From assembly GCA_964187785.1 (NCBI GenBank), contig OZ076409.1, positions 77,006,001-77,070,000 of the forward strand: a stretch of 64,000 bases of DNA. The letters run 5' to 3'. The notes below the pieces were generated by a model. It was not told the origin of the DNA and did not search any database. It saw nothing but the letters and a program-made list of their open reading frames with translations. Positions 8,089 to 42,233 of the stretch are shown here, piece by piece (position 1 is the stretch's first letter; each line of letters starts with the position of its first letter). Origin of the DNA: Amphiscolops sp. MND2022. Lineage: Eukaryota. The position numbers were made by a program, and so were the translations under genes.

Positions 8089-8973
8089 TATTAGTTTTTT
8101 AGCGATTTTTGAAGCTGATAAGGCAACTGATTCGAGGTGAAGTTTTAGGTAGAATGAATTTATCCGATTCAAGAATTTAGCCCAGTAAGGCTTTTCCGAA
8201 GTTTCCAATTTGGCGGTTAAAACATCGGTTAGTCGTCCTGATCCGTCGTAAACTTTCCTGAATGGAATTCCATAACTAATCGGCACCCTTTGATATTTCA
8301 GTGTTTACCCCTCATCGGCGTCATCACTATGAGAGGTGTGAATGACGCTTGAATTATTAATATCAACTACACCAGTCTCAAGTGGGTAATTAACGGGTCG
8401 CTTGTAAGCAATTAACGGCATGCGTCGCAAAGTTTTCTCAAAATGGGCTTCAGCCAATCAGAATTGAGCTTTGATAAATTGTAAAATTGAATAATAAAAT
8501 GGCGGAAAATAATAATCCCGAATAATTCCAAATGGCGATAGTTTCGCCTGGAGATAATTAGGGTAATGGGACAACCCGGCAGAATAAAATAAGGCGAATG
8601 GCCTTAACCGGCCATTAATTGGATAATCTGTAGAAAGGTGAGGTTGTTCTGTGCATTTCGCTGGCAGACTCCATGCACTATTATAAATATGTAAATAACT
8701 ATATAATATTAGTCTGGTAATTTCTTCAGCCACGAACTCCAACTTTCCAATTCCTTTATTCATCTTTAATTCCATTCGAATTCTATTTATATATCAATTG
8801 TTTCCCTTACTGGGATTCTCCTAGCTGATATTCATCTTCCCTTTGTCTCTAACTCTGCTGTCGATCCCCTCTCTGCAGCACTAGGGCCCCTAACTTCAGT
8901 CCACCCACGGCCATTTCCCTCAGCTTCTTTCGCCCGACGAGAGCATTTACTGTACGAGTAACATTACGGCAAC

Positions 8974-13267: not shown

Positions 13268-13510
13268 TTGTACATACGTATTTATGTACTTATGAACTGT
13301 AAACTTTGTTATTTTTCTGTTTTGTTGTCTTTTGTATCTCCATTTGTTGCAATGCCTCTGTATTTATTTACCTGAAAGGGGTTCTTCGGTTGTCCCATTA
13401 TTCATTCAAAAAATACCATGTTGCATGGGACTGAAAAAATAAAAGAAATGAAATGATAGAAGAAAAGGAATAGGTCCAAGGCTTGTCACCTGGCCAAAAT
13501 TCAATCTTTT

Positions 13511-18697: not shown

Positions 18698-20412
18698 GTT
18701 TTTTGACTCATCATTAGGATATGAGGATTGGGAGCCCGATGATGTCGGTTTGGTCTGAGGTTTCTGAGCCTTTGGATTGAAAAGTCTTTATTCTCAGTTG
18801 AGTCCTCAGGTCTAGTGCGTTTGGGTTTAAGATGTGCACCAGCAACTTGCCAACATCGTTCTTCCGGGTGGTTCTTTTTGCCACAAGTGCCACACTCCGG
18901 GTATGTTTTCTTCTGCGTTGACTTGCCTTGTTGGGCATCTTTCTCTTTTTCTTTTTCAGTTTTTCGCAGTCTTTGACCATGTGGCCTTTTTCCTTGCAAT
19001 AAGTGCAAGTAATGTCTGACATTTGCCCAGTGGACAGAGGAGTTTTAGATTTTGTAGTCGAGGAGGTCATTGTGGCCTATTGGTAGGTCATCTGATTCCT
19101 CAAGGGCGTTGAGTTCCAACTCTCTCTCCAAATGAGCAACAATTTCATCATATGAGCCATTTTCTAGTCTGGCCATGTTGACAGACCGCTTCAACTTAGG
19201 TGGCAATTTTGCATAGAGCAAGCTGTCAATCATTTTCTGTGCATGATCACCAAACGCCTTCTCGGCTCCCTGGTTTAATTCTTCGAGAAAATCAGGCAGC
19301 TTCATCGTATTGGGATCGAAGACTAGGCGGTGCCATTTATGTTTGGCAGTCGCCTGTGACTCGGGTTTGACGTATTTCCGTCTAAAGATGACTAGTACGT
19401 CCTCTAGAGTTTGTCGGTTGCTTGAGCTGATATTTCTGAACGTCTGAAGAGCATTCTTCCTCAATAAAGAGTGGAAGTGATTGATCTTCATTTGCTCAGT
19501 CATTTCTGGCTGCATCTTGATCATAGTGTGAAATAGGTCTTCGAACAGCTCGAATTTCTCACTTTTGCCATCGAATGTCATGGTATTTGAGTTGACTGGG
19601 CGTATGGTGAGTTGTTGGGCTGTCAGTCTAATTTGCATTGTAGTCAAGACGTCTGCCAGTCGGGTGATGGGGTCGGAGTCAGCAGCCGTAGCGATTCTCT
19701 CTTGTGCTGGGATCGTCGTGTCGAGGTTGATGTCCTCAAAGGACCTGTCGAGATGATTTCGGGATGAGATGCGTCCTGAGAGAAACTCAGGAACTGGATT
19801 TGTAGATTCGTTGTCTCCTGTCACCATGTCATGAACATTTAGGTCAGGGTAATCACCGTTCAATTGATTCACATATTGTTCGTTTCTTAAGCTACTCTTT
19901 GCGTTAAGGTTTCGCTGAACTTCGGAATTTGGTTCCGGTCCCTCGGCCGGAACGTCCCATCCCTTTCTGATCCTGTGTCCTGGTTCGGCCATTATAACAT
20001 TTTGGATTTGAGGAAGTACTTGAGTACTTATCGCGTCGTTTATGGCTCTCTGTATTTGGACACTTACGGAATTCATCATCTCATCCATTTCCCGTGAAAT
20101 ACGAGAGTTCAGTTCGCTAGACAATCTGTTTATTTCAGCGCTAGAATCACCTGTGATAGAATTGCGATCACACTCGGCATTCATCCTAGGTTCAATATTT
20201 CCCCTGGGTCTACTTCCGTTCCCGTCCCCATTGTCAGACTCATTACTAGCAAAACTCCTAGACCTCCTAGGTAAATTGCTATTCAGGCTACCTTCTCTTT
20301 CTCGTGCACCAAAATGGTTTTCGCCTAACATGATATCCAGATTTTCAATATCTGATAACATCTCAAGTCCTCTAGACTTTCTTGCTTTCTTTTGCTTTCT
20401 AGTGGTAGGCAT
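18695..20412 (-). pseudogene. gag: gag of element A (zinc knuckles, frameshifted in 3' part)
   Basis: Retrotransposon Gag core (TFDGKSEKFELFEDLF), knuckles CTYCKEKGHMVKDC and CGTCGKKNHPEERC; slippery A AAA AAC (18704-18698) just before TAA. Confidence 0.9.
19815..19826 (-). other. Primer binding site TGGTGACAGGAG (tRNA-Leu-like, inferred)
   Basis: Immediately follows the LTR-terminal CA; the same 12-mer follows the LTRs of B and D. Confidence 0.85.
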
Positions 20413-21684
20413 TAAGACAGAACCGGGTTGAATAATTCAATTATCAAAACCGGAAAACTGACAAAAGTCGTTGTATTAATTCAATCTTTATCAAAGTAAA
20501 GGTATGGGATTTGTGTCCTTTTTTACAGAAATATAGCTATATATACTCCTAAAAAGATGACACTCACATTCCACAAATTCTTTGATCAAGAAAACATCAT
20601 ATGACTATGGCCTCAACGGGTCATGTGACAAGTGTTATTACAGCATCGGGTAGGGTGTTCAACACTTCAAAGCAGATATTTTAGGGTGATGTCCCGATTG
20701 GGAAAATTCCTAGTTTCAGGGTAGTCCTTAGGAATTCAACATCAAAAGAATGATATTTAACAGGGTACACAAGCAGCACCTTCAAGTGTCGTGTTTATAA
20801 ACATCATCAACATCATCCTGTCAACAAATACCAATGTCTATTGAAGGAATGCAAAAGGCATCTCTTCGGAATGTGCTTGTGGCACGCGTTACCACGCGCC
20901 TATTATTCAACGTGAGTAGGAACTAGATTAAATATTACATGATCAGTTCTGCTTAAAATAATACAGCATTATTAAAATAACACACTTTCTGACAATGCCG
21001 AAGATGGACAAATCCGGTTTATTAATTCAGCACTGTAATAAAAGAGGGAAAAAGCCTTATTCGGCTTTTGAGTGAGTACTAGGTTTATTAAGCTCATTGC
21101 GCGGCATTGGGGCTTTCATTCATTATTAAGAGTACATTTACAGTAATTTACGATTAGTACACCCAATTAACACACATACAGGCTATTCCAACGAAGTGGC
21201 CGGAACCGGCCGTTTGACTAAAAGGCACAATTATTGAGTCAATTGGCCATACTCGGCCATTACATAATCAAAGTGGTATTACTTATAGAAAAGGAGCAAC
21301 GTGATTGGCTAAGGAGTTGAGCTCAAGTGACGTCTCCGAAATAGGAGTTTCGTTCACTTGAACTCGTTTCCTTTCTACTGTACAGCTACATTGTCACGTA
21401 TTACGTTTACAATAGCAAAGCGCCTTTCAATCTTTTGAAGTTACAAATACACTATTTGAATCTTCAAATGTGACTTTTAACAGACTAATTTTACAATTGC
21501 AAGTATATATATATCGAAGCTAACAACATCAACAAACATATTACGTATTGAATAACAAAACAGTATGAAAGTTCTAAGTTTGTAAATTATCCCAATTAAT
21601 AAATGGGTAATGTTCCGGGTACGAATTCTTGTCCAGTTGCCGACGTTGTCACACTCGTACCGTCACAGGCGGCAGCCTGCGACA
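19827..21684 (-). repeat. 5' LTR of element A (1858 bp)
   Basis: Direct repeat of 5534-7394, followed by the PBS. Confidence 0.95.
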
Positions 21685-23268
21685 CGTAACATGATTGACT
21701 GAGACATGTTCTGGCTTTAACGAATCATATTTGTGTTTGTTTGGAACTACCAGGAACATTAGGAATTTCATTACCTTGTTTTCTACTGTAAGGTAATTCG
21801 ATTCCATTCTAGTAAGGATTGCTTTTCTATTTGATCTATGCTAACTTATTGCTTTTTGTCAAGTTTTTTTCGTATATTCTTGTATAATTGACCGAATGAA
21901 GTTTTTGATGTTTGGATAGTTCGTTTTACAAGATCGGTACTACATCCAATAATACTTTTCATACCATTTTTTACCTGTAAAGTCTATTTTCATGCCTTTT
22001 TCGAGTCTTTGAGTTTGTATACAGTGACTTGAAATATCTAGGAGCTGTTCCGTTTTTGTCCTGGGTTCTTATTTTCTTCTGTTCGAAACTTCAAGCGATT
22101 TTTGCATTGTTCGATGAGCCTGGTTATCGTCGTCAACGATATGGGTTCATTGTGTAGTTATTGTATAGTCATACTTTTGTGTTATTACTTGATGAACATA
22201 AACACAAATGCAGCAACGAAAGACAAATAATTGATATTGTACAACGCCAAAAATAAAAAAGTAAAATCTGTTGTCAGTATAGTTAAATACAATAGATTTC
22301 CTATATATCCCTGTTCACAAGCCCCAAATTTGAGAAATTAATTCGAGGCTTTAGATCAAAAAGTGACAAAAAATGAAGCAGCATAGTTATAACGTGAAAG
22401 TTTTGGAAGCATCCAAGACTGAGATAGAGATCATAAATGTTGGAAGAAGTTTTCAAATGAAATTGTGTTTGAACGATTAAAATAGGCATATTCTTCGAAT
22501 ATTTACAGTCTTTTCTCAACATCGAGAGTTTAATCTCACAAAATACTCTTGTTGAGCGTCAATTAGAATAGAATTGAGCGACCTGTGCAGTAACAAGATT
22601 GGTCGAAAAAAAAGTTTCCCATAGCTGAAAAATAAGAATAATATTTTTTGCATGACATTCTTGAGAAATGGAGAATATAATTTTTTCTCCGAATAACTTT
22701 GTCCCTACTCATATCGCTCAATGCTAATCCAATTGACCCTTAAAATGACTATTTTGTAAGATTGCTTTCAATTCATTTCTTTTGCGAAGTTCATGATGGG
22801 ATTATCATGTAACATTTTTGAATCATTGCATTGTTTTCTGTTGTCCTAGTATCGTTAAACATTCATACTGAACAATCCTCATTATTTCATCATCAATTAT
22901 GTTTGTTTTTCTGTTAGTTGATTATTATAGATCTAAGTTCAGCTTTCAACTATTTTAGTGGGTGGCATAAAGAAGTATCTCGTTTCAATCTTGGTAATTT
23001 CAAGTCAGTGCAGTTCATGGAAACAAAAACTACATTTTGCCATCAAGACTATAAGATAAACGAGTTTTTTGAAGATTGTATTGAATCAGCTTTGTTGACT
23101 CCGAAATTTATCATCTAATTTTGGCAAAGATACGATTTTATTCTTTTAAAATTTTAACTTTAAACTTGTTTTTATAACTTTTTCAAAAATTCAACTGCAA
23201 CCTTTGTTTTTATTTTTGAGCAACCGTGACTGCACTGCTGAAATGTTTAGTTGCGAGGCCCTCAGAAG

Positions 23269-24294
23269 ATGTCGATCGGAAACTCTAGACATGATTTGTC
23301 TTATTCGGATCATTCTACTGCATCAGCCTTGAGCCCGGGACTAACAACACGGCGTTCTCGAGGCATGTACCAGAAACAGACGTTCACTTTCGAACACTCC
23401 GAAAAACGAGATTCCGAGACAACCACGCAGTCAGAAGTTATGTCATCCTCAAGAGGTCAAAGGGTTAGAGCCACATCATCAAGTGCCCACTCAAATGAAA
23501 GTTTCGGCGAGTCGACCCGGAGTCTCACTTTACCCAGAAAACCAGAGGGAGAAACGATCAATAAAAATTGGATCAAGATATTGAAAGATAACAATCAACA
23601 ACCGGAAGATGATCCAAGAAAAGATATGATGAAAAAGTTGATAGACAAAAGATTTGGCCTTGAAACGAATCATGAACCAGTGAAACGGAGAGCACGACGT
23701 GCAAGAACTAGAACAAGTTCTTCTATTTCCAGCAGTGCCGCCACCGGTGACGAAAATATACCAGACGAAAATGAGGAAAAACTGCAACGAAGTGTTTCAA
23801 ATGTCGACATTTCAACAATTGCGCTACAAGAGGATGAACAGCTGGAACAGTCCAACTTGGTTCGCAAAACAGAAAGCTGTGATATAGTTCCTACATCTGA
23901 CTATATTTCACAGAGAATGGTTGTGCCCAAATATGACGAAAGCGAAAGAGAAAGCTCAGAAGAAGTGAAGGTTCTGACATCCCCCGAAAACTCAACCAAA
24001 GTTTTAGTCACGACAAACCGAAGCACTGAAGATATAACTAAGAGCGCAAGTCCTAATCAAATAGTTATAAATATTTTATCTTCGAACCCAGAGAATTCTT
24101 CAGCAACAAGTATCAACGTAGTATCTGAAGCCAATGGTGTTACCAACGTGTATGTTGGCACAATGCCAGCGGTTGTTGCGCCGAATGATAGACCAGTGAT
24201 TACGTCAGAACCAGAGGCCGTTGAAGTGAGCGACAAAAAACCATTGATGGATCAAAAGGAAGAAAAGAAGAAAAAATGTTGTTTCTGCTTCTAA
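23269..24294 (+). CDS. Probable host gene or terminal exon: Ser/Thr/Glu-rich disordered protein ending KKKKCCFCF
   Basis: Intact ~341-codon ORF with no TE motifs, in AT-rich flanks; possible splice acceptor at 23250. Confidence 0.6.
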   Translation: MSIGNSRHDLSYSDHSTASALSPGLTTRRSRGMYQKQTFTFEHSEKRDSETTTQSEVMSSSRGQRVRATSSSAHSNESFGESTRSLTLPRKPEGETINKNWIKILKDNNQQPEDDPRKDMMKKLIDKRFGLETNHEPVKRRARRARTRTSSSISSSAATGDENIPDENEEKLQRSVSNVDISTIALQEDEQLEQSNLVRKTESCDIVPTSDYISQRMVVPKYDESERESSEEVKVLTSPENSTKVLVTTNRSTEDITKSASPNQIVINILSSNPENSSATSINVVSEANGVTNVYVGTMPAVVAPNDRPVITSEPEAVEVSDKKPLMDQKEEKKKKCCFCF

Positions 24295-27200
24295 CTGTAA
24301 TTTTTCTCAGATCATCAAATCAAACAATTTAAAAAATAGTTCATCTCACTTGAAAATTAAAGATATCCGTAACTTTTAGTACTGAAAAACTGAAACGTTT
24401 GAGATTTTGATCATGGAGTATAAAATGTATGGATAATTTACTTCAAATATATGAGTGAAATATCTTGAGAGGTGAAAATACTTGCGTGTCGAACTGAGGT
24501 ATTTAGGATGAGACAAAAAAACCTCGACAATTTTTTTGCACAAAAGCCAAAAACATTGAAGTTCGCAATCGGAAAAAAATTATAAGTATAGTTTTTATAG
24601 ATTGCTTCGGCAAAAAATTAAAGAACAAAAATCTTTCGAATTTCGATAAGATTTACAACGGCATTTTCCGTTTTGAGATCAAAGAAAAGTTAAATAACAG
24701 CATGTTTGTAGATTATGTCATATTTCGAAATTATCATGCAGTTTCTAGTAAATCGCTTGTCGTAACTAAAAATTCCGGAAACAACTTTTGTAGCCAATAT
24801 TCTTTTCAACGCACCGCTTTTTCTGGAAACCATCTCATCTATAATGCTCATGAGCCAAAGGAACATGGAGTAATATCATTTTGTGCACAAAATGATATTA
24901 CTCCATGTCTGTTTTGACAATCAACGCAGTTTTTGACTGAGATTTTAATATCAGAATCAAGGCTACAAAATGTGTTCTTTTCTACGATCAGTGTTTTCGA
25001 GATGATGTATGATAAAGTTCAGCAAGCCGGGAACGGCATAAATCGGCGCCCTACTTAAGATTCAAAAATAGCAAAAGGACTTCAAAGCGTCAAGTATTAA
25101 TACTTCTTAGCGCGTCAATTTGGTTCCCCTTTGAGTTTTTCAGGTACTGTGGAAAAGAATTCTTTTCCACAGTACCTGAAAAACTCAAAGGGGAACCAAA
25201 TTGATGCGCTAAGAAGGGGGATCCTTTGTGATTTTTAACATCAATTCTGTTGCAAAATACCAGAAAAATGAAGTTGAGACACTTTAGAGGCATTAAAAAA
25301 TTTTCGAAAAAAGTCTGATAGTGCCGAAAAAATTTCAAAGGGGGACCCTTTAGTCTCGTCGGATTTTGTATGTTTTGCTAAAAAAAGAACAACTTCTATA
25401 GTTCAGTTCCCTGCGTGTGGTAGGTGCTAGACAACTAACATTACATAACCTAAAGCTAATGTGAGAAAAACAATAGTGTGAAATACTTTATTACGTAACA
25501 TATTAACAACCTGCCAAATTATGCCAAAGTGGCAAAATAACATCTATTGCCATAAATTGAAATACCGTCGAATTTACAGTTGCTATCATATTCTTCTTTA
25601 CTTCCACTCCTGAGTCGTAGTCGTTAACATGGCGCTGCGAGCAGCTGATGATGATCAATCAAATGCCCCAGTCCCTGGACTGAGTTATTTCTGGCAAGAT
25701 GCCGAAAAATCCCCTTCGTACAACTGGGACCAATGGCTGCAACTATTCGAGGTAGCAGTGTTGGCCCGTCACTCAATTTCCGTCTCCGAATTGACAAGAA
25801 ATGCAGAACAGCAACCCCGGGCCCAAGCACTGATGGGAAACATGGAGGAAGCCCCTGCAGCAAGAAAAGTAATTAGTATACTGTACATATCATTGGGAAA
25901 AACGGGCAGAAAAATGCTAATGGACAAGTTCCCCCAGATCAATATCCTACTGATCCAACTACAACAATTTCTCCAATATTGTAACGAGTGTTTCCAAATA
26001 CGTCGAAACAGAACGATGGACAGACATACCTTCTTGTCGCGAAAACAGAAGCCATCGGAATCACTACACCAGTACTGGAACGTCCTCAATGGATTAGCAG
26101 CCAAATGTGATTTTGGTAATCAAACAGAAGGTTTGGTGTACGACGTGTTTGTTCTGAATATGGCGAATAAGCAGGTGCAGGAAAAGCTGTGCACGGAGCC
26201 CAAAGAGACCCCGGCAGAGGCACTACAATTCGCCATTGCATTTGAAGACGGATTGAAAAGACAGAGAACATACGGCTACAATGGAAATGAGACGAAAATC
26301 AAAGAAGAACCAGTTTGTGCAATAAGTGGTAACCGACAGAATACAAAAGAATGTTGAAGAAGCGGTGCCGGTAATTTTACAATGGACCATTTAAAAGTCT
26401 GCAAAGGACCAAATGCGACATGTAATTACTGCAGCAGAAAAGGCAACTTGGAGAAAGTTTGTAATCAAAAGAAAAAGGATATTTTACAGCAAAGTGGTAG
26501 ATTCAGAGCAAGTGGCAGTAGTGAGCAAATAAACCGCCGCGTCCGATTGGTCGATCAGGAAGAAGAGGAGGACGATAATTTCTTGGTTTTGAACGTAGAT
26601 GGCCAAAATGAAAACATTAAACCGTATTATATGGAAGGGTTTATTAATGGGAATCGCTTCAAAACAATGATCGACTCAGGGTCGCCAGTAACCAATTTCG
26701 CGCTAGATGAGATTAAACAGATCATGCAAAGAGAAAAATTACAAGTGCGCCAGATGATTAAAAGCGAGTGGTACATGGATTTCAACGGGAAGCCGTTGAA
26801 TTTGCTGGGATACGTTTTCTGTGAATTACAAGTGGGGGATCAATATAATAAAAAGGCGAGAATCCTAGTCACAAAGAGTGGTACAAAATCGATCATCGGC
26901 AGAGATTGGTTGTCAACGTTGAAATATACAATTGCCCCAGCTAACAAAGGTGAGTGTGAAGTTAATTCAAATGAAAAAGAAGAAGAACTAAGTACGGAAA
27001 CCAAGCAATTTTGTAACGAATTTCCAAAACTGTTCAAAAGAAACGGGAAGATAAAAGATCACGAAATCAAAATAAAGCTAAAACCGGATGCAAAAATTAC
27101 GCAACAAAAAGGGAGAATAATCCCAATTCAACTACAAAACGCGGTAGATGCGGAAATAAAACGATTACTAAAAGAAGGCCATATAGAAAAAATTAACGAA

Positions 27201-27846
27201 ATCAAGGACGACGTATTTATACAGCCAACAGTAATAACAGTGAAGAAAGACCGTTTGGTAAAAATCGCGTTGGATGCAAGAGCGCTAAATCAAGCCATTG
27301 ATAAAGATAAATACCAAATGCCGAACCTTGATAACTTGTTAGACATGGTAGCTGAAAAGCTAGATAATGAAAAAGGTGAGGCATGGGATTCATCGGTTGA
27401 TATGACATACGCATACGGTCAAATTCCACTACATTTGCTAACAGCGAAACACTGTAATTTTCAAATTATCGGCGGAGAATCAACGGGGACGTATCGGTTT
27501 GTAACAGGTTTTTATGGTCTGACGGTTATGCCGACAGAATTTCAAAAAGTTTGTTATTAGCAAAATTTAGAGAAGTGTTTGTCTTTATCGATGATATTTT
27601 AATTGTAACCAAGGGAAACAAAGCTGAACATTTGAACAAAGTGCGGGAAATTCTAAAAGTGCTAGATGAAGCAGAACTACAATTAAAGGCGGGAAAATGC
27701 AAAATTGCTAAACAAGAAATCGAGTGGTTAGGGTTCAAGTTGACAAGTTCAGGCATTTCGCCAATAAATTCGAAAGTACAAGGAATTACAGAAAAACTCA
27801 GACCAACGAATTTGAAAGAACTACGATCGTTCTTAGGCGCAGTGAA

Positions 27847-28287
27847 TCAATTCAATAGATTTGTCCCAGATTTGGCTACAATTTGCTTTCTGTTACGACA
27901 TGCCAACGAGTCGTTTTGAGTTGAACTTATTCTCACTGACTTTGTAGGGGTATAAAAGTTTCTTGTTTCCTCTTCTACTTCTTCCTCGGTATTCTCCCTA
28001 ATGATTCCCCTTGTTTCAGGTTTCAGGAGTTTCAACATCTCCTTCTGAGATTCGACAAGAAGATTCTTAATTTCTGATGTTATTTCCTCTTTCAAGGAAG
28101 CCCTTAAACTTTCTAGGAGGCTGTTTTCAATCCGGGGGGATTTTGAGTTAGAAGGCCCCGCTACCTCATCGTCCTGGTTTAAGGAACAAGGATTTCCTAC
28201 TACTATGGGTGAAATCAAGCCTTCACTTACGTTCTCATTGGTGCTTTGCTGATCATTCCTTCTTTTCTGGCTTCTTGTTGTTGACAT
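27847..28287 (-). CDS. LTR-encoded Gag-N-terminus-like ORF in solo LTR C
   Basis: MSTTRSQKRR basic start and coiled-coil segment; 132 codons + 1 nt to the LTR end, the same phase as the other families. Confidence 0.7.
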   Translation of the reverse strand: MSTTRSQKRRNDQQSTNENVSEGLISPIVVGNPCSLNQDDEVAGPSNSKSPRIENSLLESLRASLKEEITSEIKNLLVESQKEMLKLLKPETRGIIRENTEEEVEEETRNFYTPTKSVRISSTQNDSLACRNRKQIVAKSGTNLLN

Positions 28288-30375
28288 TTTTGTAGAAACG
28301 TTTGATCTTGAAGAATTGATTTCTTTCAAATATATTTTCTAACAAAGTAGAACAAGGCAAGAGTTTGATGAAATTGAAAATTCAACTGAATTGTCCATTA
28401 CAAAAGACTGAGTCCCTCAGTTAGCTAAAATCATCGTATATATACCCTCTTAGCATCATTTGATCACGAGTTAAATCCTAATTTCCTCCGAATAATTAGT
28501 CGTTTCCTGTAATTTCGGTGCAAAAATCATATTGTTCCCAATTTTGCGTCGACATTCCGTCAAATTTTGAGACACGGCAAATCTAATCTAGTATTAGTCA
28601 TCAACCATAATCATATTATTTCAGCTCGGCGTCCTTTTGTTTCCTCCCAAGCAGAAAGTAGATATTACTTCAGTCTGTCAAACCGGAAATATTTCCCTGT
28701 TTTGCTGCTTTGGTTCGTAAGAAACTGACGCTGAGGTGACGCCGGCATGAACAACTAATATCTGAATTTTGATATTTCGCTCGAGAAAAATGCTATGACT
28801 AATGTTTTCAGCCCTGTAATTTCCAATGATGATAAGAAGGAAAGAGAAACAAGATTAAAGAAATAGCAACAATCTCAAATTAATTTCAAATTAAATGGTT
28901 AATGATTATCAAAATAAACCAACGACACATTGACGCTTGATGGATTGATGGACTAGATTGTCTAATTCAGACTTCTGCCCCAATTTAATGATATTTCAAA
29001 CACAAATGTTGTCTAATATTACTTTAGCATTCATTTAACGAATATACACAACACTCTGTCAACAGGTTTTAACTTGCACATAAAATATTATTTCGAACAA
29101 AACGTTTGACGACGTGAGAGCGGCACTTTGTGGGTTTCCTGAACAAGCAAGAGTTCAAAACCTTCTATCATCAGATCTTAATCATTACAAAATGTACAAT
29201 AGCAACACAAACATTTATTCTGAATTTATGCACATTGGGGTTAAAGCAATGACTATCCTGATTAGGGGACGACGACGTACCGGTGTCCAATTTAACACAA
29301 CAAGGTTATAGCACACGCTTTATGTAGTACAAAACACAAACATATGGAAATACGTTTCCATTACGAAAATACTATCGATTTACTTTCGTCATGCTCATAA
29401 ACTGTTACTTTCACCTATATTATACAGGAATTTCCATTTCAACTTAAGTTTTAGAGCAGAATTAACCCGGCAAAGGAAATGTTTGACGGAAACGTGGCGT
29501 AGGACCTCAAATTCCTCACTAATTGTCTTGTTAAATCACCATGCACTTTAAACGTATTCCTAGTACTAATTAGTTTGATTGATATTCATCATAACTTTTG
29601 GGTGGATTAAAATAGCTTGTTTTGATGGAATTTGGACGTACCGTGGACGTACGTATTAGTATTAGGCCTGGTCCAGAATAGTGGACGCAACGTGGACGCA
29701 AATTTGAAGTAAGAATTAGTCCGCACCGAGAAGACAACACCGTGACGTCACTATGGCGGAAAATTGGAATGATTTTAAGTAGTGTCACTAATATAGGCGG
29801 TAAATTGGAATGTTTCTCTAGTGTGCGCGGACGGAACGGTGACGTCACACTATATACTTTCAAGTCTGCTTCTTACCGACATCTAATATACATGTATTCT
29901 TTATTTTGTTTACTTAGCGCAGTGCCGACGTCCTAATCCATACTAATTGCCGTTCAAAGTGCAATTAAGTTGCCTTTCTTAGAAAAGGAGTGGATATCTC
30001 GGTGTGTCATCTTGACGTAGTTTCTATTTTAGATTCAGATAATGTCCTTTTTCCAATGGTAATTTTGGGTATGTTTTCATTTAGATCGGTCTATGGTCTT
30101 TATTTCACGACGTGTTTTAATTTAGTTTTCAGGTGGCGAATGTTTCTATTTTGGCGCACTAAGGGCGTCCTACCGGATATGTGTGAAATCATCTTATTTC
30201 AAATTTAGTTTCTGTTCTCATTTTTGTTTAAACTTTTCGTAAGTTGGGCGTTCGTTTTCGTATTCTTAGTCACAGTTTATTCCAAAGATAAGGTTTTAAA
30301 TTTCCAGTTAAAATAAGATTTGGGGAATCTTCAGTCGTCTGCAACCACAAGCCAGACCGGGAGCGGGCTGTGACA
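27891..30375 (-). mobile_element. Solo LTR C (2485 bp) of another long-LTR gypsy family
   Basis: TG...CA ends, TSD CTTTC (27886-27890, 30376-30380), interrupts the element E RT. Confidence 0.9.
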
Positions 30376-31057
30376 CTTTCCATTTCGTTCAATTTTAAAA
30401 AAGGAAGCCAATTGGGAACGGAATGAAGAACATGAAAAAGCATTCAGAAGAGTCAACAAAGAAGTGAAAAAAGTCGCGGAATTAACGCATTTTAAAAGAA
30501 ACAAAGAGCCGGGCCAAGCGGTTCATAGCTCTGGAACGTTCCTGTTGAAAAAAGGCAATTTCAGGATTTCAATAAAAAAAGAAGCGTTAGTATTAAATGT
30601 AATGAAAATTTATCTTTCATTTACTCACATCAGATGCGGGATTGTTAAGTGGTTAGAGCAGTCTATAGGATCTCAAAAACTGATAGAATGTCAGCTTCAT
30701 CTGGGCTCAGTGAAATACGAATGAAAACAAATTCAAAGAAAGTATCAAGTAAAACATTAGAAAAACTAAAACGTTTTTTTTTCAACCGCCAAAAAGCCTG
30801 CCAATATCACAATTCGGAGACCGGTGCTTTTTTCACACAAGGCTGAAAAACCTAAAGGGCGACCCTTTTGTATCGTCTAGCTTTGTAAACAACATGAAAA
30901 CAATTCAGTCGAATTCACGAAGTCCTGCTTGCAAGGCATGCACCTTAACTACAAGATCAAGTGGCGAGAGAAGTGGCGTAAACAATGTCTCAATGAGAAA
31001 AACACCGTTACTGTAATAGTCAGGCACAATTTGTTTAATGCGCCGACAAAGAGTTGG

Positions 31058-33312
31058 TGTCATGCCAGCATGATGGAAATATAATCTACTAAATATCTGT
31101 AATGTGAATATTATGTCTTATGTACTTAGATATGGGCAATATGATGTCATATAATAAGAACCATGGTTGTGAGCAACCCTACGTTACTTATACTTAGTCC
31201 CCATTCCCCCATGAGTTTGAGTTATATATATTTACTTAATACTGAGCGCTCTAGTTCCGGTGTCCGCATAAATGATCTCGCCAAATAGTCTCGAATGTGC
31301 TATAATTCATAAATATTGGTTTGTCACGACAAGGGAGAGAAGTGTTCCGGTCAAACTGGACCGAGAGATGTAGAAACGATGAAAGCTGTAACTTCTACTA
31401 GCTCCCCGCCTCAGGACTTGTAGTCGTGACAACACTTTCATGAAGTTCATGGCTAGTCCATCAGCGGACTTAACGATGAACCCGAATTGATTGATAAATT
31501 CATTAGATCCATCAGCGGATTTAATTTGGAGCTATTTTGAATGAAGTTCATCGCAATTTCATCTCCAGAATTGCATATGAACAACAATTGGGACGTTAAA
31601 CAGACTTTACATCACTAATCCATCAGCGGATTTTATGTGACCTTATTTTAGTAATTTCATCTTAAATTCATCGTTGTATTTCATGTACAGAAATTTCAAT
31701 GTGCTTCTCATTTCTTAAAGGACAGTAACCCATCCTTTATTCATCGTATTCACTAGCGTAGAAGGGAAATAGGGAAATGAGAAAGTACATCCTTAATCCA
31801 TCCTAAAAAAGAGTGAAAGTGCTGGTTATCTGATTTGCTTATAAAACCCATCCTTAATTCATCTTGATTTCGTTTGTGCTGAAAATTAACCATTTTAGTG
31901 GATGAGTTCATCCTAAACTCATCGCTAAATTGAATTGCCTTAGTATTCGGTGTTTTAACTGGTGAGTTCATCCTAAACTCATCGCCAATTTGTATTGTTT
32001 TGGTATTTGCTGTTTTAACTGACAAGTTCATCTTAAACCCATCGCCAAAAATTCACTTGTGCTAGAATTAGCGTTTATCGACTGAATTCATCCCGAATTA
32101 ATCGTCATTTTAATCTGTGCTGGAAATTGGCAAATTATACGTGGAGTTCATCCTTTTATCATCGTCAGCTTAAATTGTGTTGATTTTCGAGCGAGAAAGA
32201 CCACCATTCATCGCATTTTCATCCAGAGCTAAACTAGACTTGAAAATCAACAAATATTCTTACAAGTTCATCGCATTTCCATCTTCAATTTTTAAATCAT
32301 TGGTTTTGGCGCTAGAATCAGCGGAAAACATCGTTTTCCCATCCCGAATTGCGCTTTATCTTAAATTGACTTGAAATTAGTGCGTTTTTGAATGATTTGA
32401 GCTCATTTTAGTTGCTATAGAAACCATGATGCTGCGTGCAGGCAATTGCGACATTGTAAATTGATGACTAAACACCATTAACATATGTAGATGTACCGTG
32501 ATGCGTGGCCACTTTGCGGCAGTTCACAACACCGGTCACGTGACTTACCATTTTAACACCAGCTGGTAACAGCCAATGAGAGAAGGTTGGTAAGAGATTT
32601 AGCGTCTTACCAACCGAAAAGACACGTGAACTGCTGTAATTTGGACCGCCATTAGCGATTACTCAGACCGAATTGCGACAAGTTACCATCCAGTTGAATA
32701 GTTCACGCCAGAATTCTACTTGAAAATATATCCCCATTTCATCTTCAAAACTATAGAACTGAAACTGAGTAATTTCCTTGGTGCATTTATGATTGCGATG
32801 AAAACTGGATGAACTTTCCTAGCTACCTTACTAATTTCCTTGTTCTCACCTAACGATTTACTTGATTGTACGACTTCATCTCTAAAACACCTCAGTTCAG
32901 ATTAGTGAATTTGGGATCGAATAAATACTTGAATCAGTAAAATACTTCGAACAGCATCTCAGATAATCCAGTCTTCACTCATATTTCTTTTCTCTCAGCT
33001 ACATGAACCCAGACCAAGGTACCGAACTTAGAAGTGGTAGGGTTATAAATTCTTCGTCAGAAACATCTTCTCCAGCAGATCCAGACATGGCTCAGGCAAA
33101 CTCAAATGATTCTGACACCAACGACAATTCGGATATCTCTTCTCAGTTATCTGAAATAAAGGAAATTTATGAACGCCGAATTAATGAGTTACACCAGGAG
33201 TTTAGTCAACTGAAGGACCTAATGATGGCGATTGTAAGCAAGAATAATAACGAATCTCAGCCTTCTAGCTCAAAAGGTCCTTCAAAGCCGACCCAACAGC
33301 AAGGGTTCGACA
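31058..33312 (+). repeat. 5' LTR of element B (2255 bp)
   Basis: TGTCATG...TCGACA, repeated at 47944-51994. Confidence 0.95.
31549..32343. repeat. Array of 14 CATC-N7-CATC sites; nine at exact 60-bp period
   Basis: Sites start at 31549, 31610, 31658, 31731, 31788, then every 60 bp from 31849 to 32329 (32089 has one mismatch). Confidence 0.92.
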
Positions 33313-34513
33313 TGGTGACAGGAGTTACAGAAACCCGCTCCACCCGCCCGACATCAAGCTTCACAAACTTCAGACGATACCAAGAATATGACTCAGACGA
33401 AGAAGGCGATTCAACTCCCAGAAGCAACGAAGAACGGCTGTTAAACGCCATCGAGACGATCCCGCAACGCATAAAGAGCACTACAACAAATACGAAACTA
33501 CTGCAGTCACACGTACCAAATTTCAGAGGACAGAAAGACAAATTCGTCGAATTTGAACACCTTCTCCTCAACCACCTCAGCCCGTTAGCCAATAAAATAA
33601 CTGAGGAGAACAAGCTTCATTTCTTTCAAAGCCTTTTGAGAGACGAAGCAATCGAGTATTGGCAATCGATCCAAATAACACCACTGACAACGCTGAAAGA
33701 TGTGCTCGATCTCTTCAGAAAAGAATTCGCGAAAGAGGACCTCAAAGAGGTAGCGCGCTACAAATGGGACCAAGCCCGTTACGATCCCACAACGGAGACA
33801 TTCAGCGACTTCCTCAAAAACTTGAAAAAGACGGCGAAACAAGCATTTGGGGATGACGCAGATAAAATCATCAAAATGTTCTTGTTCGGCAAACTTCCAG
33901 TCGAAATACAACAAGAACTTACAATGGCTAACAAGGAGGAGAGCTCACCGGAAGAAATCAAGACATACTTGATGAGGAAATACCAATACCAACAGTATGC
34001 AGCACCGCCCACGACAATTCAACCATTCAACGCAGTCACCTCCTCTATTCCGACGAACAATGAAACAATGAAACCAAACCAACAAGGACGACGACAACAC
34101 AACCAACGGAAAAAAAACGATTCGAAGGACAATGCTTCTACTGCGGAAAGACAGGTCACCGCAAAACGGAATGTCGCGCCCGACAACGTGACGAAGCAAA
34201 CGGCATTAAGAAAGAAGATGCAATTCCGATGAAGAAAGCAACCGACCCAGACAAACCGAAGTACAATCCCAAGCTGGTTTGTCAGATTTGTGGATACACC
34301 GGCCACTCTGCAAGAGACTGCAGACGACGCATTCCCAAGGAAAGCAGCTCTGCATATGGAAAGATTCCATACACAACGAATTCACAGGACGACAACAAGG
34401 CTAGACGACAAGATTTAAAACGACAGCAAAAGCCGATGAATCCAATGCAAGCAATTACTGAAGACGACGAACAAATAAGCTACTCTGATGAAGACATTAA
34501 TCAGGGTTTTTGA
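33003..34513 (+). pseudogene. gag: gag of element B (frameshift near 34085)
   Basis: Gag core PNFRGQKDKFVEFEHL, knuckle CQICGYTGHSARDC; slippery G GGT TTT (34504-34510) before TGA, with pol in the -1 frame. Confidence 0.9.
33313..33324 (+). other. Primer binding site TGGTGACAGGAG
   Basis: Directly after the LTR-terminal CA. Confidence 0.85.
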
Positions 34514-37500
34514 TTCAGCCACGATTTCCGCCCGCTAGAAATACAACGCGCGACACACGACTTTCGACTCAACCGACTACACACAACCGTCCAATGAAGA
34601 AATGGCAGCCTTCACTGGACAAACGACCAAAAGCTGACGATGTCTATCAGCGAAGACTTTCCAACGATGAAAAAGCGATGGGAAATGCACGTCAACGCAA
34701 CGGCAGCCGCTTTTCTCCACTCGCTGAAATCAACGATGAACAAACGATGAACTGGCAACAAAACACCATGAGGCAGGTGGACGATGCCAAAGAGATGGAC
34801 ACCAACCATCTAGACGACGACTCGACTTCACACTCAACAATCGACAAACGGCTTAGTATTAAAAACATGCAAAACAAAGTAGTATTAACATTTCAAAAGC
34901 TAACAAACATGCAACTAAAACAGAAATTCACGTTCTTAGTCCCACTTTACATTTAAACAAGAAAGATAAAATGCTGTACGTCCCTCTTCAGTTTGATAAA
35001 TACGAAAATCATGCACTGTTAGACACAGGCGCAATTCAATGCGCAATGCCTGAAGCAGAATTGCGAAAAATAACAACGGCTCATCCAGAAGCCATCCTTC
35101 AAGAACTCCCCCCTCCGAATTTCAAAATTCAAATAGCAAACGGGAACTTAGTCCCAGTGCGTAAGCAAGTCTTACTTAGATTTTACGTTGCTGGAAAAGT
35201 CTTTGAAGAAACGTTCCTAATCCTTCCAACAATGGGCACAATTTTAATTGGAATGTCATTCTTTGAAAAGTACTCGGTCAACTTGGACATAAAAAACCAC
35301 CTTGTCCACTTCCCCAATCACATGATGTCCATGCAAGTTAGACAGCAAAAGAACAACAGATTCAAAACCGGTTTATTTGATTTGTGTTCCAGTACTAGAA
35401 CAGTGATCCCTCCTCTCCATCAAGTGATGATACAGGTCCACAGTGACGCGGACATCTCACTTACAACTGGTACAGTTGAGGGCTCACCTGGATTCATGCG
35501 AAAGACGTGTTTGCTTGTTTCCCCAGCTTTGGTTGACCTAGATGAGGGCAAGACGACAATCCAGGTCACCAACCCGAACAACCACACGTTCACACTTGAT
35601 GCCAACACCACTCTGGCACACTTTCGCATACCGACACCACATCAGGCGGCAAACATCACACCCATGCCAGTCGAACACTTGAACCTGATCACCAAGTACC
35701 CAGATGAGGCGGAAGCGGTGATCAACCAACTGTTCGTGAACCCTGAAATGAAGTCAACTAAGTGGTACCCAACTCCCGAGACGTGCAGTGAGCCAAACAA
35801 ACTCAACGCAATTGAGCGACGAATCTATGATGAGATTCTGGCACTGCGAGAGCTCGAGAAGCTTGACCCGTCCCAATCCGATGAACAACGGATGAACTTC
35901 CTGAAGAACTTCAACTGGGACGACTCGCTTCTTACTCCGTCTCAACGGTTACAGGTAGAGGAGTTGCTGGTAAAGTACAACTCCATTTTTGCTAGACATC
36001 GTTTTGATATTGATATGAACACTGATTTTAAAGTTAAGTTAACACCCCAACATGAAGAACCTGTTTATTCACAAAGTCTCCCTACTCCGACAAATTTGAA
36101 GGACGATTTGCTCGTGGAGTTAGCCTTATTGCAAGAGTACGGGATTATAACTACCTTGCCTCACAGCAAATACTCTTCTCCGATATTTGCTCAACGTAAA
36201 CCTAATGGTAAATTGAGGGTTTTAGTTGACTTGAGAAGAATAAACCATCTCATCAAAAACGATTACGGTGCGCACAACCATCCCGTAACAACAATTGCTG
36301 ACGCTGCACAACACATGGCCGGGAAAAAGTACTTCTGTAAACTTGATTGTTCCCAGGCCTACCATTGCATTCCAATGGCCGATGAGCAGTCTGTCCAACT
36401 GTTATCGTTTAATTTTGGTTCTAGAACTTTTGCCTTTTTACGTCTAGCACAGGGTCTTAATCGTTCTTTGTCAGCATTCACAAGTGTAGTCCGTGAGTAT
36501 TTGGACCCCTTGGTCGAAGCGGACCGATGTGCTCAATATGTTGATGACATTGGAATTGCAGCACACACCCCTGACGAACTGATTAATAACCTTGAACTTG
36601 TTTTTCAGCAGTTGAACAAAGCTGGTCTCAAACTTAGCATGAGTAAATGTGAATTTGGACAAAAACAAATTGAGTACTTGGGAAAAACCATTTCTAGCAC
36701 CGGTATTGCTCCCATTGAAAAACGCGTAACAGATTACTTAACCAAGTTGAAAACCCCCAATTCAGTGAAAGCGTTGCAACGTTATCTTGGTTTTGTAAAC
36801 TTTTACAGGTCTTATATTCCCCGTTTAGCTGATAAAACTTGTTGTTTACAGGAATTGATCAAGAAGGACGTCCCTTTCAAGCTGAGCCAACAACATAAAG
36901 ATGCTATTTTTGAAATCAATGAAAGTTTGTGTAAAAGCAACAAAAGTGTCTCTGAAATTGCCATTACCTGATAAACAATTGGTAATCATGTGTGACGCCA
37001 GCGAACACGCTGCCGGCTATGTTTTGTTAATTGAGGATTATGCTGACCCGTCAGTCAAACAAACATACGCCCCTGTTGCATTTGGCTCTAAGAAATTTCA
37101 GGGCGGCCAGATGTCCCTAACAATGTATGCCAAAGAGTTTTTAGCTATGCACTTTGCCTTCGATGAATTTGGCCACATTTTGTGGGGTGCGAAAAAACCC
37201 ATCATTGTTATGACTGACAATAAGGCCTTGACTAGATTTTTTCAGGCGAAGCATATCCCGCCCTCACTTTGGAATTTTTGCGATCAAACCCTCCAGTTCA
37301 ATTTTTTATTAGCACATGTACCAGGAGTTGAAAATCCCGCAGCGGATTACTTATCTCGTCTTGAGATTAGACCTGAAGACCGTGTACATTTAAAATTGAC
37401 TGATACTATTCCAATTCACAGAATCGAGATCGACATCGCCTCCCGAACACCAAAAGAGGAGGAAGACGAGCCTGATTACTTTCCCACGAGCGAACCACTC

Positions 37501-39602
37501 AGATGCAAGCGCCAGAAGGTTGTCAACGAGATGAACTTGGCACCTGGCACTGAAGTGGCTCATGACGATGGGAAAGGGATGAAGTTCACCAACTGTGAGA
37601 AAACAGCGGCCTCAGATGACTTCGCGACTGACAACCATCTGACGTACCGCCTCACAGACGGGGACGAGCCGATTCAACTCTCGCAATTCATCCGTAAAGT
37701 ATCATTATCACACCCGGTAATGAGTCAGGTTAGCCCCGCTGAGGGGATCGATCTAATTCAGGTCCAGAAAAATAACTGGGTTATTCAAAAAATGATTAGA
37801 TTTTTAGAAGGTACTGAAATTTTGCAACACCCAGTTAGTATGCAAGATCAGTTTTTTCAAAAGTTGCACAAAAATCGAAAACGCCTACAAGTTGTAAACG
37901 GTGTCTTGTACAGACAGTTTTTTGATCACACGGGACTGGAGTCTCACAAGCAGTTAGTTGTTCCTGAAGACTGTATTTTGAAAATAATTAGGACTCTACA
38001 TAACAGCCCGGTACAAGGACACCCTGGTTTAAAGAAAATGTTGTACGAACTTCGCAAAAGATATTACTCTCCTAACTTAGCCTGTAAAGTTCAAAAAGTC
38101 CTTGACGGATGTGAAAACTGCATGAAATCTAAAAGTGTAAAAGAAACGCAACTACGTCCACCGTTACAAAAAATCTACGACCCGTGCGACGGACCAGAAG
38201 ACCTGTTGGAAATAGACATCGTTGGTCCACTCCCGGCGTCGAACGGTTTTACACACATTCTAACAGCTGTTGACGTTTTTTCACGCTACCTGTTCGCCGT
38301 TCCGCTGAAGAGACCTGATACACATTCCGTAGTCAGAGGATTACTGTCGATCTTCACGAAACACGCGTATGAGCCCAAGCACATTCTGACCGACAAGGGC
38401 ACGGCGTTCACGGCTGAACTTCTGTCTGAAATCGCGAAAGCGGCTAATATTCACATCTCCCATGCCACGATAAAGCACGCACAGACAATAGGCATGGTGG
38501 AGAGAACGCACGCGAAACTGAAAAAGATCCTTAAAATTAGTGTAAATGCAGACAGACCACAATGGGACCGCTATGTCGACATAGCAATCATGGCCCATAA
38601 CACAACGTATCATGATTCACTGAAATGTTCACCAACTGAAATTTTCCACGGCAGAACACCATACAACCCACTAGATCTGCAATTCCGAAACGCAAACAAG
38701 CCGGCTGAAACAAAGTGCAAGGACGTGAACGAAATTCTAGACAAAAAGAACTTCATCTTCAGAGACAATCTAGACAACATCATTTCCGCCTATCACAAGT
38801 ACAAAATGTACTATGATAGAAAAGCACGAGCACAGCCACTGAAGGTGAATGAATTTGTGTTCCTACTAGATCCTAAGTACGACTCTCAGAGGAGCAAAGA
38901 AGAATTTAAAACTTTCCATTGGAAAGGACCGTACAAGGTGATGAAAGTACTATCCGATAGCAACTACATCATCCGCAAACTAGGCACACACCAGACTCAG
39001 TGCGTACACAGAATGCGACTGAGGTTGTTCAAACAGGAATTTCCGATTGATGACATCAACGTGTCCAAACATCTCTACCCAGACACTGAAAGGGTTGAAG
39101 ACACGGACATTTTCGACTCGAATATTCCGACGACCGACGAAGTAGATCAGAATGAGAATGACAATCTAGATCAAGACTTAGTCGAAGAAGAGCCTTCAGA
39201 AGAAATAGTTCCACAGGTACAAGAACGACACAGCCCACAAGTAATTCCACCAGAAATAACCACGAGAATAGACTATCAGCAAGTAGAAACTGACCACAAC
39301 AACTTTAGACCACCTACAGTTAGATTTGGAACGCAAGAGGAAATTATTCTACCGCCCCCCGCGATGAAAGTAGGATAAGAGTACCTCTGAGAGACGAACA
39401 ACACGAAAATCAATCACAACAGACCAACACGCAAACTGAAGATGAGGAAAGGATGAGTTCTAGACCGTCTAGAAACAATCAGAGTAGGTACAGGTTACGC
39501 GAGAACCCTACACCGAAAACATATCCTGATTTCCTCATTCATGAGATTACTGCAGCTAGAAACGCACTGAGAAAGACCAACAAAGTAAACGTAACGATTT
39601 AG
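34510..39602 (+). pseudogene. pol: pol of element B, frameshifted
   Basis: LLDTGA, YVDD, CDAS, HPG..CENC, integrase core, WKGPY. Confidence 0.95.
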
Positions 39603-42233
39603 CCACGAAAAACCACATTTCTAAACATACGATGAGTTACGGATGAAAATCCACAAAAACGAGTCAATTACATGCAATTTTAACTTAAAACGAACATGAA
39701 GATGTAAAATAGATGAACAATCACTTAAAACTACATGAAATACGCAAAAAAAACAAAACACGATGTAAAACGGATGAAAAACGACCAAAAAACCAGAAAA
39801 AACAACACATAAAAATTTTGAGATGAAAAAAGGATGAAAACACATGAAAATTGATCTCAGACACACGAGAGATGAAAAAGTGATGAATTTAGTCAAAATT
39901 TCGACCAATCAACATGCAATATTTACTAGCGATGCATTTGAGATGGAAAATGCCATCAGAATGCGAACGCACTCACATTCATGCTATCATAATACTCTAG
40001 CTCGGCTAGAGGATGAAATAGCGATGAACTCGATTCAAATATTCAGAAATTACATGAAATCAATTAATGAGATGAATTTGTGATGGAAACTACCATCAAA
40101 TCGTGACCGAATTTATCGTTAGCCTGACACGATACTCTAGCTTCGCTGGAGGATGTCAAAACGATGAATTTAGTCTAAATGGAAGTTCGAAAATATTAAA
40201 TGACTTACGAAAACCTCCTTGTGATGGGAAACACCATCAACATAACATCACAATAAATCAGCTAATTCCCAAACAACATGTAACTCCACGAAACGATAAA
40301 AAACGGCCGACTTTATTTCGAATCACGCAAATAGAATTATGCTACACAAAAATGAAATGATCAATACATGTAAGGATCAAAGACCTGCCAAATCAATGAC
40401 GTCACGAAAGAAATTGACAACTCCAAACTACATGCAATACAAATGAGCAACACACGGAAACATACATGTACCGTTTAAAAATGAACGAGATAATATATGC
40501 AAATCACACCAAAGCCATTCAAACCGAGACGAATAAAAATGAAACAAACAATCGAAAATACATGAAGCCTACTAACTTACATGCAAAATATAAGAACTGA
40601 CGAAACACCCACAAAACGAATAAAGGAGTGAGCCCCCCCAGTAAACATCAGTTCATAACAAGCAAAATACCCCTATCGAAAAGCCAAAAACATTCCTTCG
40701 TGCTGGCTGGCATTTCTCTGAAAAGAGTGCTGGTTAGTTGAGGCGGGGAGCTCACAACCATATTCGGATGAAGCTTGCTGCGTTGGTTATCCAGCGGCTA
40801 GTGGATTCTCAGTTAGTTTTGTAGGGGTTTTGTGACAACAAAGCCCTGTCCAAATGAACGAAAATAAAAACACCAAATTAAAATACATGAAACTAACACC
40901 GAACATATAACAACATGTCGATAATGGGGCAACCCATTTAAAGGAATACATTATGAAAACACGCGAACATGAAACCACACAATATCACAAAATTTAATAA
41001 CTCGAAACATGCAAAGCCGTAGATGTCAATTACGTTGATTGATCAGAATAAACGTCAAATGGACAAAGCCATTTCGACGTCTGATGACAAACAACCGACA
41101 CGTAAAAATTAACATGAAGACTATATATAGCTCAAAACTGAGAGATTTCATTCATCTGAAAGGAGCGGAGCAGCTCCACTCACCCAGCTCTGGATTGGTA
41201 CCTCAAGAACCTTGCACGCCTACGGGGTACCAATACCATTGCTGAGTGAACATCTCTTCGACTGCCACGCAAGCGGCGGTCACAAGAGTCCGAAAAAATG
41301 ATTCATGCAATAACATTCAAACTATGACAAATCCGAAACGCAACGAAAACGAGTATGACACATGTACACTAAAATTCATGCAATCTCGATAACCTGACAA
41401 ACGATCAACACCATATAACACTAAAATACATGAAGAAAACAATCCGAATCCACCGCAAAATTGATAAAATACCCTCATCCACCATGAAAGACGCAATCCT
41501 CGATTACGTTATAGCAAAATAAACACGAAAAACACGCAAAGTAAATATTTTCCAAAAATACGATGAAAAGAAGATGAACTCCGCAGCAAAATGAGCAAAA
41601 TTTCGAAAAGTCAAAACGTACGATGCAAAAACGATGAATTACAGCAAATAACTCGCCAAAATGATAAAATGAAAACGTAAGATGAAAAAACGATGATCTA
41701 TGTAGGGAAAACCACATGTAACAACATGCACTGATTCATATATAACGAACGATGTAAAAAAGATGAGAAAACAGTTTTCGCGACGTCGCTCGGCCGACTG
41801 AGGAAAACACGATGAGAATGAGATGAGACATCAAAATGAAACACTGATGAATTAGCCACACCTACACGAGATGTAATAATGATGAACACCGTGCAGATGC
41901 TCGATGAGAATTGCGACAACGAAAAAGCGATGCGAAAACACTACCGAAAGTGACCTAATGGCCGAAATTGTTGATTCCTATACATTTCTTATTCTGTAAC
42001 TACTACTAACAACTCAAGAGAAAAAACAAATATCGGGCGCCAAATAGTTAAAACTGTAAATAGACATCGCTACCGATCTTTCCGACGTAGCAGGGATTTT
42101 TTTCTCGATCACCCCCCTTTTCTTTATTCAAACGTTATACTCCAAGTTGGTCGCCCATCAAAATGCTAATACTACATACTCAATAACACAAATAATACAA
42201 AGAGTCAATCAAATGAGTACAAAAATTCAAATG

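Follow-up and report, generated by a model that had tools for sequence, protein, structure and literature searches.

A spaced CpG pair recurs along a family of Gypsy retrotransposons that carries an antisense zinc-finger gene as its candidate reader

Why should a solo long terminal repeat (LTR), a remnant that has lost the antisense gene of its family, keep several copies of one rigidly spaced motif? This question is raised by a 2485-bp solo LTR of a Gypsy family, here called C, at positions 27891-30375 of the 64,000-nucleotide stretch of Amphiscolops sp. MND2022 DNA that was analyzed (the window). The LTR lies on the minus strand, which is the sense of gag, and its insertion splits the pol gene of another Gypsy element. 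Its TGT..ACA ends and the CTTTC target-site duplication on both sides (27886-27890 and 30376-30380, plus strand) agree with the TG..CA-type ends and 4-6 bp duplication of the Ty3/Gypsy LTR class, and the initial annotation of this DNA was right to call it a solo LTR. That annotation also proposed a family motif, GACG-N7-GACG, whose 11-bp geometry would be shared with a "family B", and suggested that different families use specific recognition codes.

Results

Paired CpGs in the solo LTR

The reported sites are all in place. Exact GACG-N7-GACG matches occur on the plus strand at 28727-28741 (the same in 29/29 other copies), 29635-29649, 29684-29698 and 29830, and on the minus strand at 28547-28561. 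The extensions are likewise as described, with TGGACGTA present twice (29633 and 29644) and GTGGACGCA twice (29681 and 29692), as are the near-matches at 29485 and 29733. The entire window holds five exact matches, all of them in LTR C, compared to a shuffle mean of 0.83, and 0/100 shuffles reach five. For the LTR itself, the expectation is 0.024 (0/1000 shuffles). Five of the six GACG direct pairs found in the LTR at gaps of 0-20 have gap 7, and GACG-N7-GACG ranks top among the 4-mer/gap pairs of LTR C.

Real as these sites are, GACG-N7-GACG is too narrow a description of the family motif, being one subset of a simpler pattern. When pairs are pooled over 12 C loci, the palindrome GACG-N9-CGTC (counted on both strands) occurs 128 times versus 8.3 expected, and GACG-N7-GACG occurs 98 times versus 8.3. 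What they have in common is a pair of CGs at a distance of 11 bp, and we take CG-N9-CG to be the underlying unit, here called the barcode. The halves of C pairs are quasi-palindromic, with GACGTC the most frequent. The solo LTR carries 18 CG-N9-CG sites, compared to a mean of 3.1 and a maximum of 9 in 1000 shuffles, and 36 of its 89 CpGs sit in such pairs.

Two of these sites (27896 and 28159) fall in the gag head, an open reading frame coded within the LTR (27891-28287, minus strand) that runs on into gag in full-length copies. The near-match at 29485-29499 (plus strand), which reads GACG-N7-GGCG, is a perfect CG-N9-CG. A stretch at 29733-29758 (plus strand) combines the other near-match with a CG-N9-CG at 29746 and contains the palindrome TGACGTCA at 29743-29750, and another at 29826-29847 (plus strand) holds two interleaved CG-N9-CG sites (29826 and 29832) together with the GACG-N7-GACG at 29830 and a second TGACGTCA at 29840-29847. 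Five more sites, absent from the initial annotation, lie unstranded within 28923-29388 (28923, 29110, 29270, 29353 and 29376), and three more within 29918-30250 (29918, 30155 and 30238).

Full-length family C elements

LTR C matches 39 other places at 93-95% identity (40 scored of 4258 candidates in the 1.07-Gb genome). Ten pairs of family C LTRs, about 16.2 kb across, were taken as full-length copies. The gag-pol reading frame begins inside the LTR in 10/10 of these copies, and 10/10 also carry an antisense gene that is interrupted by introns and encodes a C-x2-C-x16-H-x5-H finger. The antisense gene forecast for full-length elements is thus present, but the forecast internal clusters of GACG-N7-GACG are absent, each element having 1-4 exact internal sites. 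The paired LTRs are 98.6-99.6% identical, which indicates that the family is young. The C integrase lies in the last, 3′ part of pol and shares 50-59% identity with that of the relative B, on which the Pfam domain order (RT-RNaseH then integrase) was determined.

CG-N9-CG is found at a density of 2-6 per 500 bp over the entire C element, including the LTR, gag, pol, and the antisense gene. The mean gap between sites is 158-159 bp in C and 111-117 bp in lineage C2. In 4/4 stretches the sites are spaced more evenly than expected at random (CV 0.58-0.64 versus 0.98; 0/2000 simulations), where sites ≤13 bp apart were merged, a step that lowers the CV slightly. EM motif fitting converged on CG-N9-CG for C2/C3; the fits for C, D and E drifted to sequence composition.

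Several other features of these elements deserve mention. A third sense ORF before the 3′ LTR (L033:2516-3289, minus strand; window 7306-8304, minus, and 1737-2627, plus) is acidic and Ser-rich and extends into the LTR. Its A and B versions contain CxxC and have no Pfam match. One contig region (G000:C149:1723-59312) presents five family C LTRs in 13.8-kb steps, which is either a tandem chain of four LTR-sharing elements or an assembly artifact. Within family C, antisense cassettes are silent-site saturated between copies with 91-99% identical integrases (L031-L058, finger exon versus integrase), a combination indicative of the exchange of old cassettes between young backbones.

Excess of the barcode at silent coding positions

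In C pol, CG-N9-CG counts of 37, 33 and 35 compare to means of 15.4, 14.4 and 14.0 for synonymous-codon shuffles (0/300 shuffles each), and C gag has 9 versus 3.4 (1/300). The same shuffles reveal no CG-N9-CG excess in D, B or F pol, and the unrelated Gypsy pol that hosts LTR C (26358-27560) gives a borderline 5 versus 1.9 (15/300). Gap 9 is the sole raised gap among gaps of 2-15, and CG-N9-CG tops the 3072 dinucleotide-pair/gap combinations in both C pol and C2 pol. The total number of CGs in C pol is not elevated (255 versus 271).

Retention of individual sites follows the pairing. Between two C pol genes with 86% DNA identity, silent-class CGs are kept in 40/47 cases within pairs versus 78/133 outside them (p 0.001). 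Three C2 comparisons gave p values of 0.066, 0.009 and 0.002, and neither gap 8 nor gap 10 shows the retention effect. Among antisense exons close to saturation at fourfold sites (identity 0.23-0.44), each carries 13-18 CG-N9-CG, and these coincide at only 1-9 positions. The site positions of the C barcode turn over while their density stays constant. Pooled over antisense exons, the excess is modest in C (148 versus 99.5 at 10 loci, where 1/10 alone beats all 200 shuffles) and larger in C2 (203 versus 89.4 at 12 loci, where 9/12 alone do so). Because the copies are related, these pooled counts are not independent, and it is the single-gene tests that carry the claim.

Lineage-specific motifs

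A survey of 72 loci, all sampled around antisense fingers, covered lineages C (18 loci), C2 (24), D (11), B (7), A (1), F (1) and E (10). Per 10 kb, C contains 66.5 CG-N9-CG and 7.8 GACG-N7-GACG, and the latter occurs at 0.0-0.8 in other lineages. The corresponding values for C2 are 75.1 CG-N9-CG, 6.0 CGGA-N7-CGGA and 0.8 GACG-N7-GACG. Lineage D has 39.7 GATG-N7-GATG, a motif found at 0.0-0.7 elsewhere, and 0 GACG-N7-GACG. GCC-N6-GGC reaches 9.3 in B and 8 in A, TATRCG-N4-TATRCG reaches 11 in F, and lineage E exhibits no clear motif. D pol also holds GATG-N7-GATG (34 versus 3.6), and in a scan of B pol the core CC-N6-GG ranks third (74 versus 44.7). There is no motif excess in the one copy of F pol, and that in E pol is weak. 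From this comparison, the families differ by one base (C versus D), by flanks (C versus C2) or by spacing (B and F).

The suggestion of family-specific recognition codes is therefore borne out in that the spaced motifs are lineage-restricted and nearly mutually exclusive; that the antisense protein reads them is what we infer. The shared 11-bp geometry holds for C and for the GATG-N7-GATG element but is not universal, since it is 10 bp in two other lineages. Judging by this geometry, the "family B" of the initial annotation is probably the element at 31057-49174, here called D.

Besides solo LTR C, the window contains four such elements, and the motifs of D, B and F are confined to their own elements. 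Element D (31057-49174, plus strand) is full length, with an antisense finger gene at 42234-46107 (minus strand) and 63 GATG-N7-GATG sites (30 plus, 33 minus). Element B (5533-21685, minus strand) is also full length and has an antisense finger gene at 9080-13267 (plus strand) and GGCC-N6-GGCC / GCC-N6-GGC motifs. Element F (57415-64000, plus strand; the start given is the first array, not an LTR edge) has a further finger type and TATRCG-N4-TATRCG arrays, and it leaves the window into locus L116.

Other observations concern the surroundings of these elements. The antisense gene of element B has a frameshift within its finger exon (10669-10747), and many other copies are open over about 696 amino acids. 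A 909-bp tandem duplication lies at the end of the second LTR of element D, with another partial copy (48840-50992 and 53196-53766). Near-perfect palindromes of 114 and 46 bp occupy 25103-25216 and 24863-24908. A likely host ORF at 23251-24294 (plus strand) is of low complexity, with a basic stretch and CCFCF at its end, and has no significant Pfam match. Spaced arrays in both orientations occur near locus ends at L096:370-425 (AAGAT, 11-bp period) and L057:270-515 (CAGA, 10-bp period), and these are possibly the barcodes of other families. CG-N10-CG was considered as a code for lineage E and rejected, as its excess disappears under synonymous shuffles and reflects a codon-phase effect in coding DNA.

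The antisense zinc-finger gene

Every sampled lineage has its own antisense zinc-finger gene, the loci having been sampled around such fingers. In C, manual reading finds only the last four exons of the gene to be phase-compatible; at locus L033 the finger exon occupies 4913-5503. The C-x2-C-x16-H-x5-H finger is conserved, has no match to Pfam zf-BED, and is modeled with a pLDDT of 94-98 over the finger. Values of dN for the finger exon are 0.04-0.40 with dS saturated in 14/15 pairs, and by these estimates the exon is under strong purifying selection.

In the available text of PMC10368747, the Hermes BED finger contacts bases through N67 and R70, which lie in the helix preceding the first His, together with S66, Q64 and two backbone carbonyls. 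Manual matching to N67/R70, counted back from that His, identifies the finger residues at -4 and -1. These are E/R in 14/14 C, 19/20 C2, 7/7 B and 8/10 E fingers, T/E in 10/10 D fingers, and E/S in F. According to the available portion of PMC11514455, C2H2 fingers recognize CpG with an Arg-Glu pair, Arg reading G and Glu reading C. By this rule, lineage D, the one whose motif has T in place of C, is also the one whose finger has lost both E and R at these positions, although this is a single contrast. The simpler notion that Arg before His always means CG was dropped, since the F finger has Ser there yet has a CG motif. Moreover, lineage E has an E/R finger in 8/10 loci yet no clear barcode. 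Two residues ahead of the helix, the C fingers have K/R/E and the C2 fingers Q/H, and fingers that are only 52-70% identical over the finger exon have the C barcode in common.

Motif groups agree with finger groups in a quick tree of 61/66 loci (L069, L102, L103, L104 and L106 had no finger match, and C sits in an open fork with E), and they agree equally with integrase groups, where D is represented by one locus. No cassette swap across clades was found among the sampled loci. Given this shared descent of motif, finger and integrase, the reader is not singled out by the grouping, and our candidate is chosen because the element itself encodes it. Querying the genome with the divergent finger P0240 returned nothing at E 1e-40, and no relatives were confirmed in viral and metagenome contigs.

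The antisense protein might have originated from a transposase. For the last antisense exon, Hermes is rank 1 of 48,161 chains (Z 5.0, rmsd 8.5, 184 aligned), a score within the range of chance helical matches. Searches of Pfam (with the antisense ORFs of the window and 37 finger-exon proteins), PDB sequences, Foldseek and the Atlas yielded no transposase match to the antisense exons, and with longer-protein searches included they named no family; RasGAP matches from the Atlas had low recognition value and were set aside. With regard to the DDE triad, inspection of 21 loci by eye shows no invariant Asp where the first candidate strand in the middle exon ends. Among solved folds, zinc fingers of spliceosomal and TUT proteins come nearest to the finger (Z 3.0-5.0), with ZBED3 at only Z 2.0, and we take these nearest folds to be matrin/U1C-type RNA binders. 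Homology of the antisense protein to hAT transposases is only weakly suggested by the structural comparison.

Discussion

A proposed reader and competing explanations

We propose that the antisense zinc-finger protein binds the family C barcode, with GACGTC as the best halves of CG-N9-CG, and marks the copies that carry it as self. It would act as a dimer whose two fingers sit on each CG pair of double-stranded DNA at a distance of one helical turn. Such a protein could descend from a hAT transposase without cutting ability, and it would coat the element roughly once per nucleosome-sized step and hold it open to transcription. The outcome would be activation or anti-silencing, not packaging or integration. 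The solo LTR C would be bound in trans, because it has kept 18 sites and lost the gene. A DNA target also fits, because the D motif is equal in both orientations (30/33). We assign a probability of about 0.5 to the reading that the antisense protein is a double-stranded-DNA-binding, dimeric barcode reader that activates its own family. More speculative is the broader proposal that a family identity is written along the whole element, silent codon positions included, that a tamed transposase coats and protects only its own family, and that the code evolves via a single base, the flanks or the spacing, all in an animal that gives no sign of CpG methylation.

What the data establish is the barcode and its even spread, the excess at silent positions, the turnover of sites, the lineage specificity of the motifs, and the conserved antisense finger gene. 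Perhaps the barcode serves replication instead, with the RNA or new cDNA being coated by Gag, integrase or the antisense protein, so that packaging, nuclear import or integration selects members of the same family. Even spacing from end to end would suit the coating of a 16-kb molecule, the motif tracks integrase clades, and the closest folds to the finger come from RNA-processing proteins. Furthermore, CG-N9-CG is symmetric and so is also present on RNA. However, the non-palindromic motif of D is divided 30/33 by orientation, which counts against single-stranded RNA though not against cDNA. The C and C2 integrases are also 72% identical, and the domain content is ordinary in gag-pol relatives that bear other motifs. 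On balance, we consider a replication role rather unlikely.

Host DNA-binding proteins might also read the motifs, with every lineage adapted to another host factor that permits its expression. LTRs often gather host factor sites, and the two perfect TGACGTCA palindromes at 29743 and 29840 are presumably CRE-like. However, ten arbitrary 10-kb genomic stretches have CG-N9-CG ratios of 0.6-1.4 and thus no excess, at least five rigid geometries would require five host dimers, and the sites are spread evenly over pol rather than concentrated at a promoter. A host-factor code is therefore doubtful in our estimation.

A neutral origin through tandem duplication, shared descent or mutational bias seems improbable. 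Some noncoding clusters are indeed tandem repeats (L033 3380-3630 and the L116 arrays), relatedness makes pooled counts non-independent, and half-site columns in the LTR are barely less variable than the rest (7/56 versus 353/1972). None of this readily accommodates a silent-site excess that 0/300 shuffles reproduce in single pol genes, the retention of paired CGs, under-dispersed spacing, or constant density despite turnover, all with a total pol CG count of 255 versus 271.

The role of CpG in the barcode raises the matter of methylation. In 29 LTR copies, transitions affect 0.8% of CpG positions (40/4960) versus 2.0% of other C/G positions (431/21632), a low rate that is due in part to the many CpGs that belong to barcode pairs. 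For the CpG observed/expected ratio, the window gives 0.92 and LTR C gives 1.05. A PF00145 search produced five matches, and DNMT1/3 were not found with this query, which can miss intron-rich genes. Among the loci examined (L111, L112, L113 and L115), one of the two chromosomal DNMT2-like genes adjoins a histone H2B-like ORF, and two methylase-like matches sit on small contigs; by sequence, the chromosomal matches look like DNMT2 and the two on small contigs look foreign. An origin of the GACG/GATG difference from methyl-CpG decay is rejected in view of the lack of raised CpG transitions, these observed/expected ratios, and the failure to find DNMT1/3 with this query. A standing methyl-CpG code, in which C is methylated and the GATG of D is a deaminated or methyl-mimic form, has in its favor that GACG to GATG is exactly CpG to TpG and that Arg-Glu pairs can favor methyl-CpG (available portion of PMC11514455), but given the same transition rates, the ratios of 0.92-1.05 and a PF00145 search that yields DNMT2-like genes and no DNMT1/3, it is the least credible explanation of all. 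The most fitting interpretation of the barcode CpG is that of a recognition core without methylation.

Comparison with known systems

Our literature search, which covered titles and abstract openings and left most subscription papers outside its coverage, found no description of a CG-N9-CG barcode. A similar arrangement of genes is seen in the plant Gypsy elements Retand, Grande and RIRE2, which according to the available text of PMC11963269 have an antisense, transposase-labeled TRP28 gene between pol and the 3′ LTR, with family-specific tandem repeats nearby and a proposed DNA-binding regulatory role. The TRP28 domain (Transposase_28, PF04195) is plant-only, and no PF04195 match was obtained for the antisense ORFs of the window or for 37 finger-exon proteins. 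For Retand TRP28, that same text ties no target motif to the protein and reports no coding-DNA barcode.

Hermes provides a parallel for recognition. In the portion of PMC10368747 noted above, one zinc finger reads a 4-base motif, and paired, exactly phased sites are bound cooperatively. Unlike the sites in C, those of Hermes cluster near the element ends and serve cutting, and its finger is CCHC rather than CCHH. For function, the available text of 10.64898/2026.08.24.746577 describes Spm TnpA and the AtMu1 transposase as sequence-specific activators of cognate copies via a family motif. These are transposase-derived DNA-binding proteins, often without catalytic residues, and the antisense protein is a candidate counterpart. 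In contrast to family C, they belong to plant CACTA and MuDR elements, and "retrotransposon" occurs 0 times in the main text of that article.

The silent-site results show that selection at the DNA level acts over an entire pol gene. If the proposed reading is correct, several further consequences follow. Antisense extra ORFs of Gypsy elements, whose function has hitherto been obscure, gain a candidate DNA target. At least five natural candidate protein-motif pairs become available for cross-comparison, and the finger series could provide a small natural code of single-finger DNA recognition. Solo LTRs would scatter ready-made binding platforms genome-wide (4258 first-look candidates, of which 40 were scored).

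The VANC/VANDAL system of Arabidopsis also bears a likeness by description. VANC is an anti-silencing protein whose output is DNA demethylation and which belongs to DNA transposons, as set out in the available text of PMC5735166. There too, a transposon-encoded accessory protein is accompanied by many copies of a short family motif, and related families are 1-2 letters apart. VANDAL motifs, however, reside in noncoding tandem repeats and are absent from the coding probes examined in that text, whereas the C barcode runs through gag, pol and the antisense exons as a rigid pair placed evenly in silent codon positions. Family C is, moreover, an animal LTR retrotransposon with no sign of CpG methylation. 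By analogy, the system would work like VANC/VANDAL, TnpA and AtMu1 but is none of them, and if so, sequence-specific self-recognition would extend from plant DNA transposons to animal retrotransposons.
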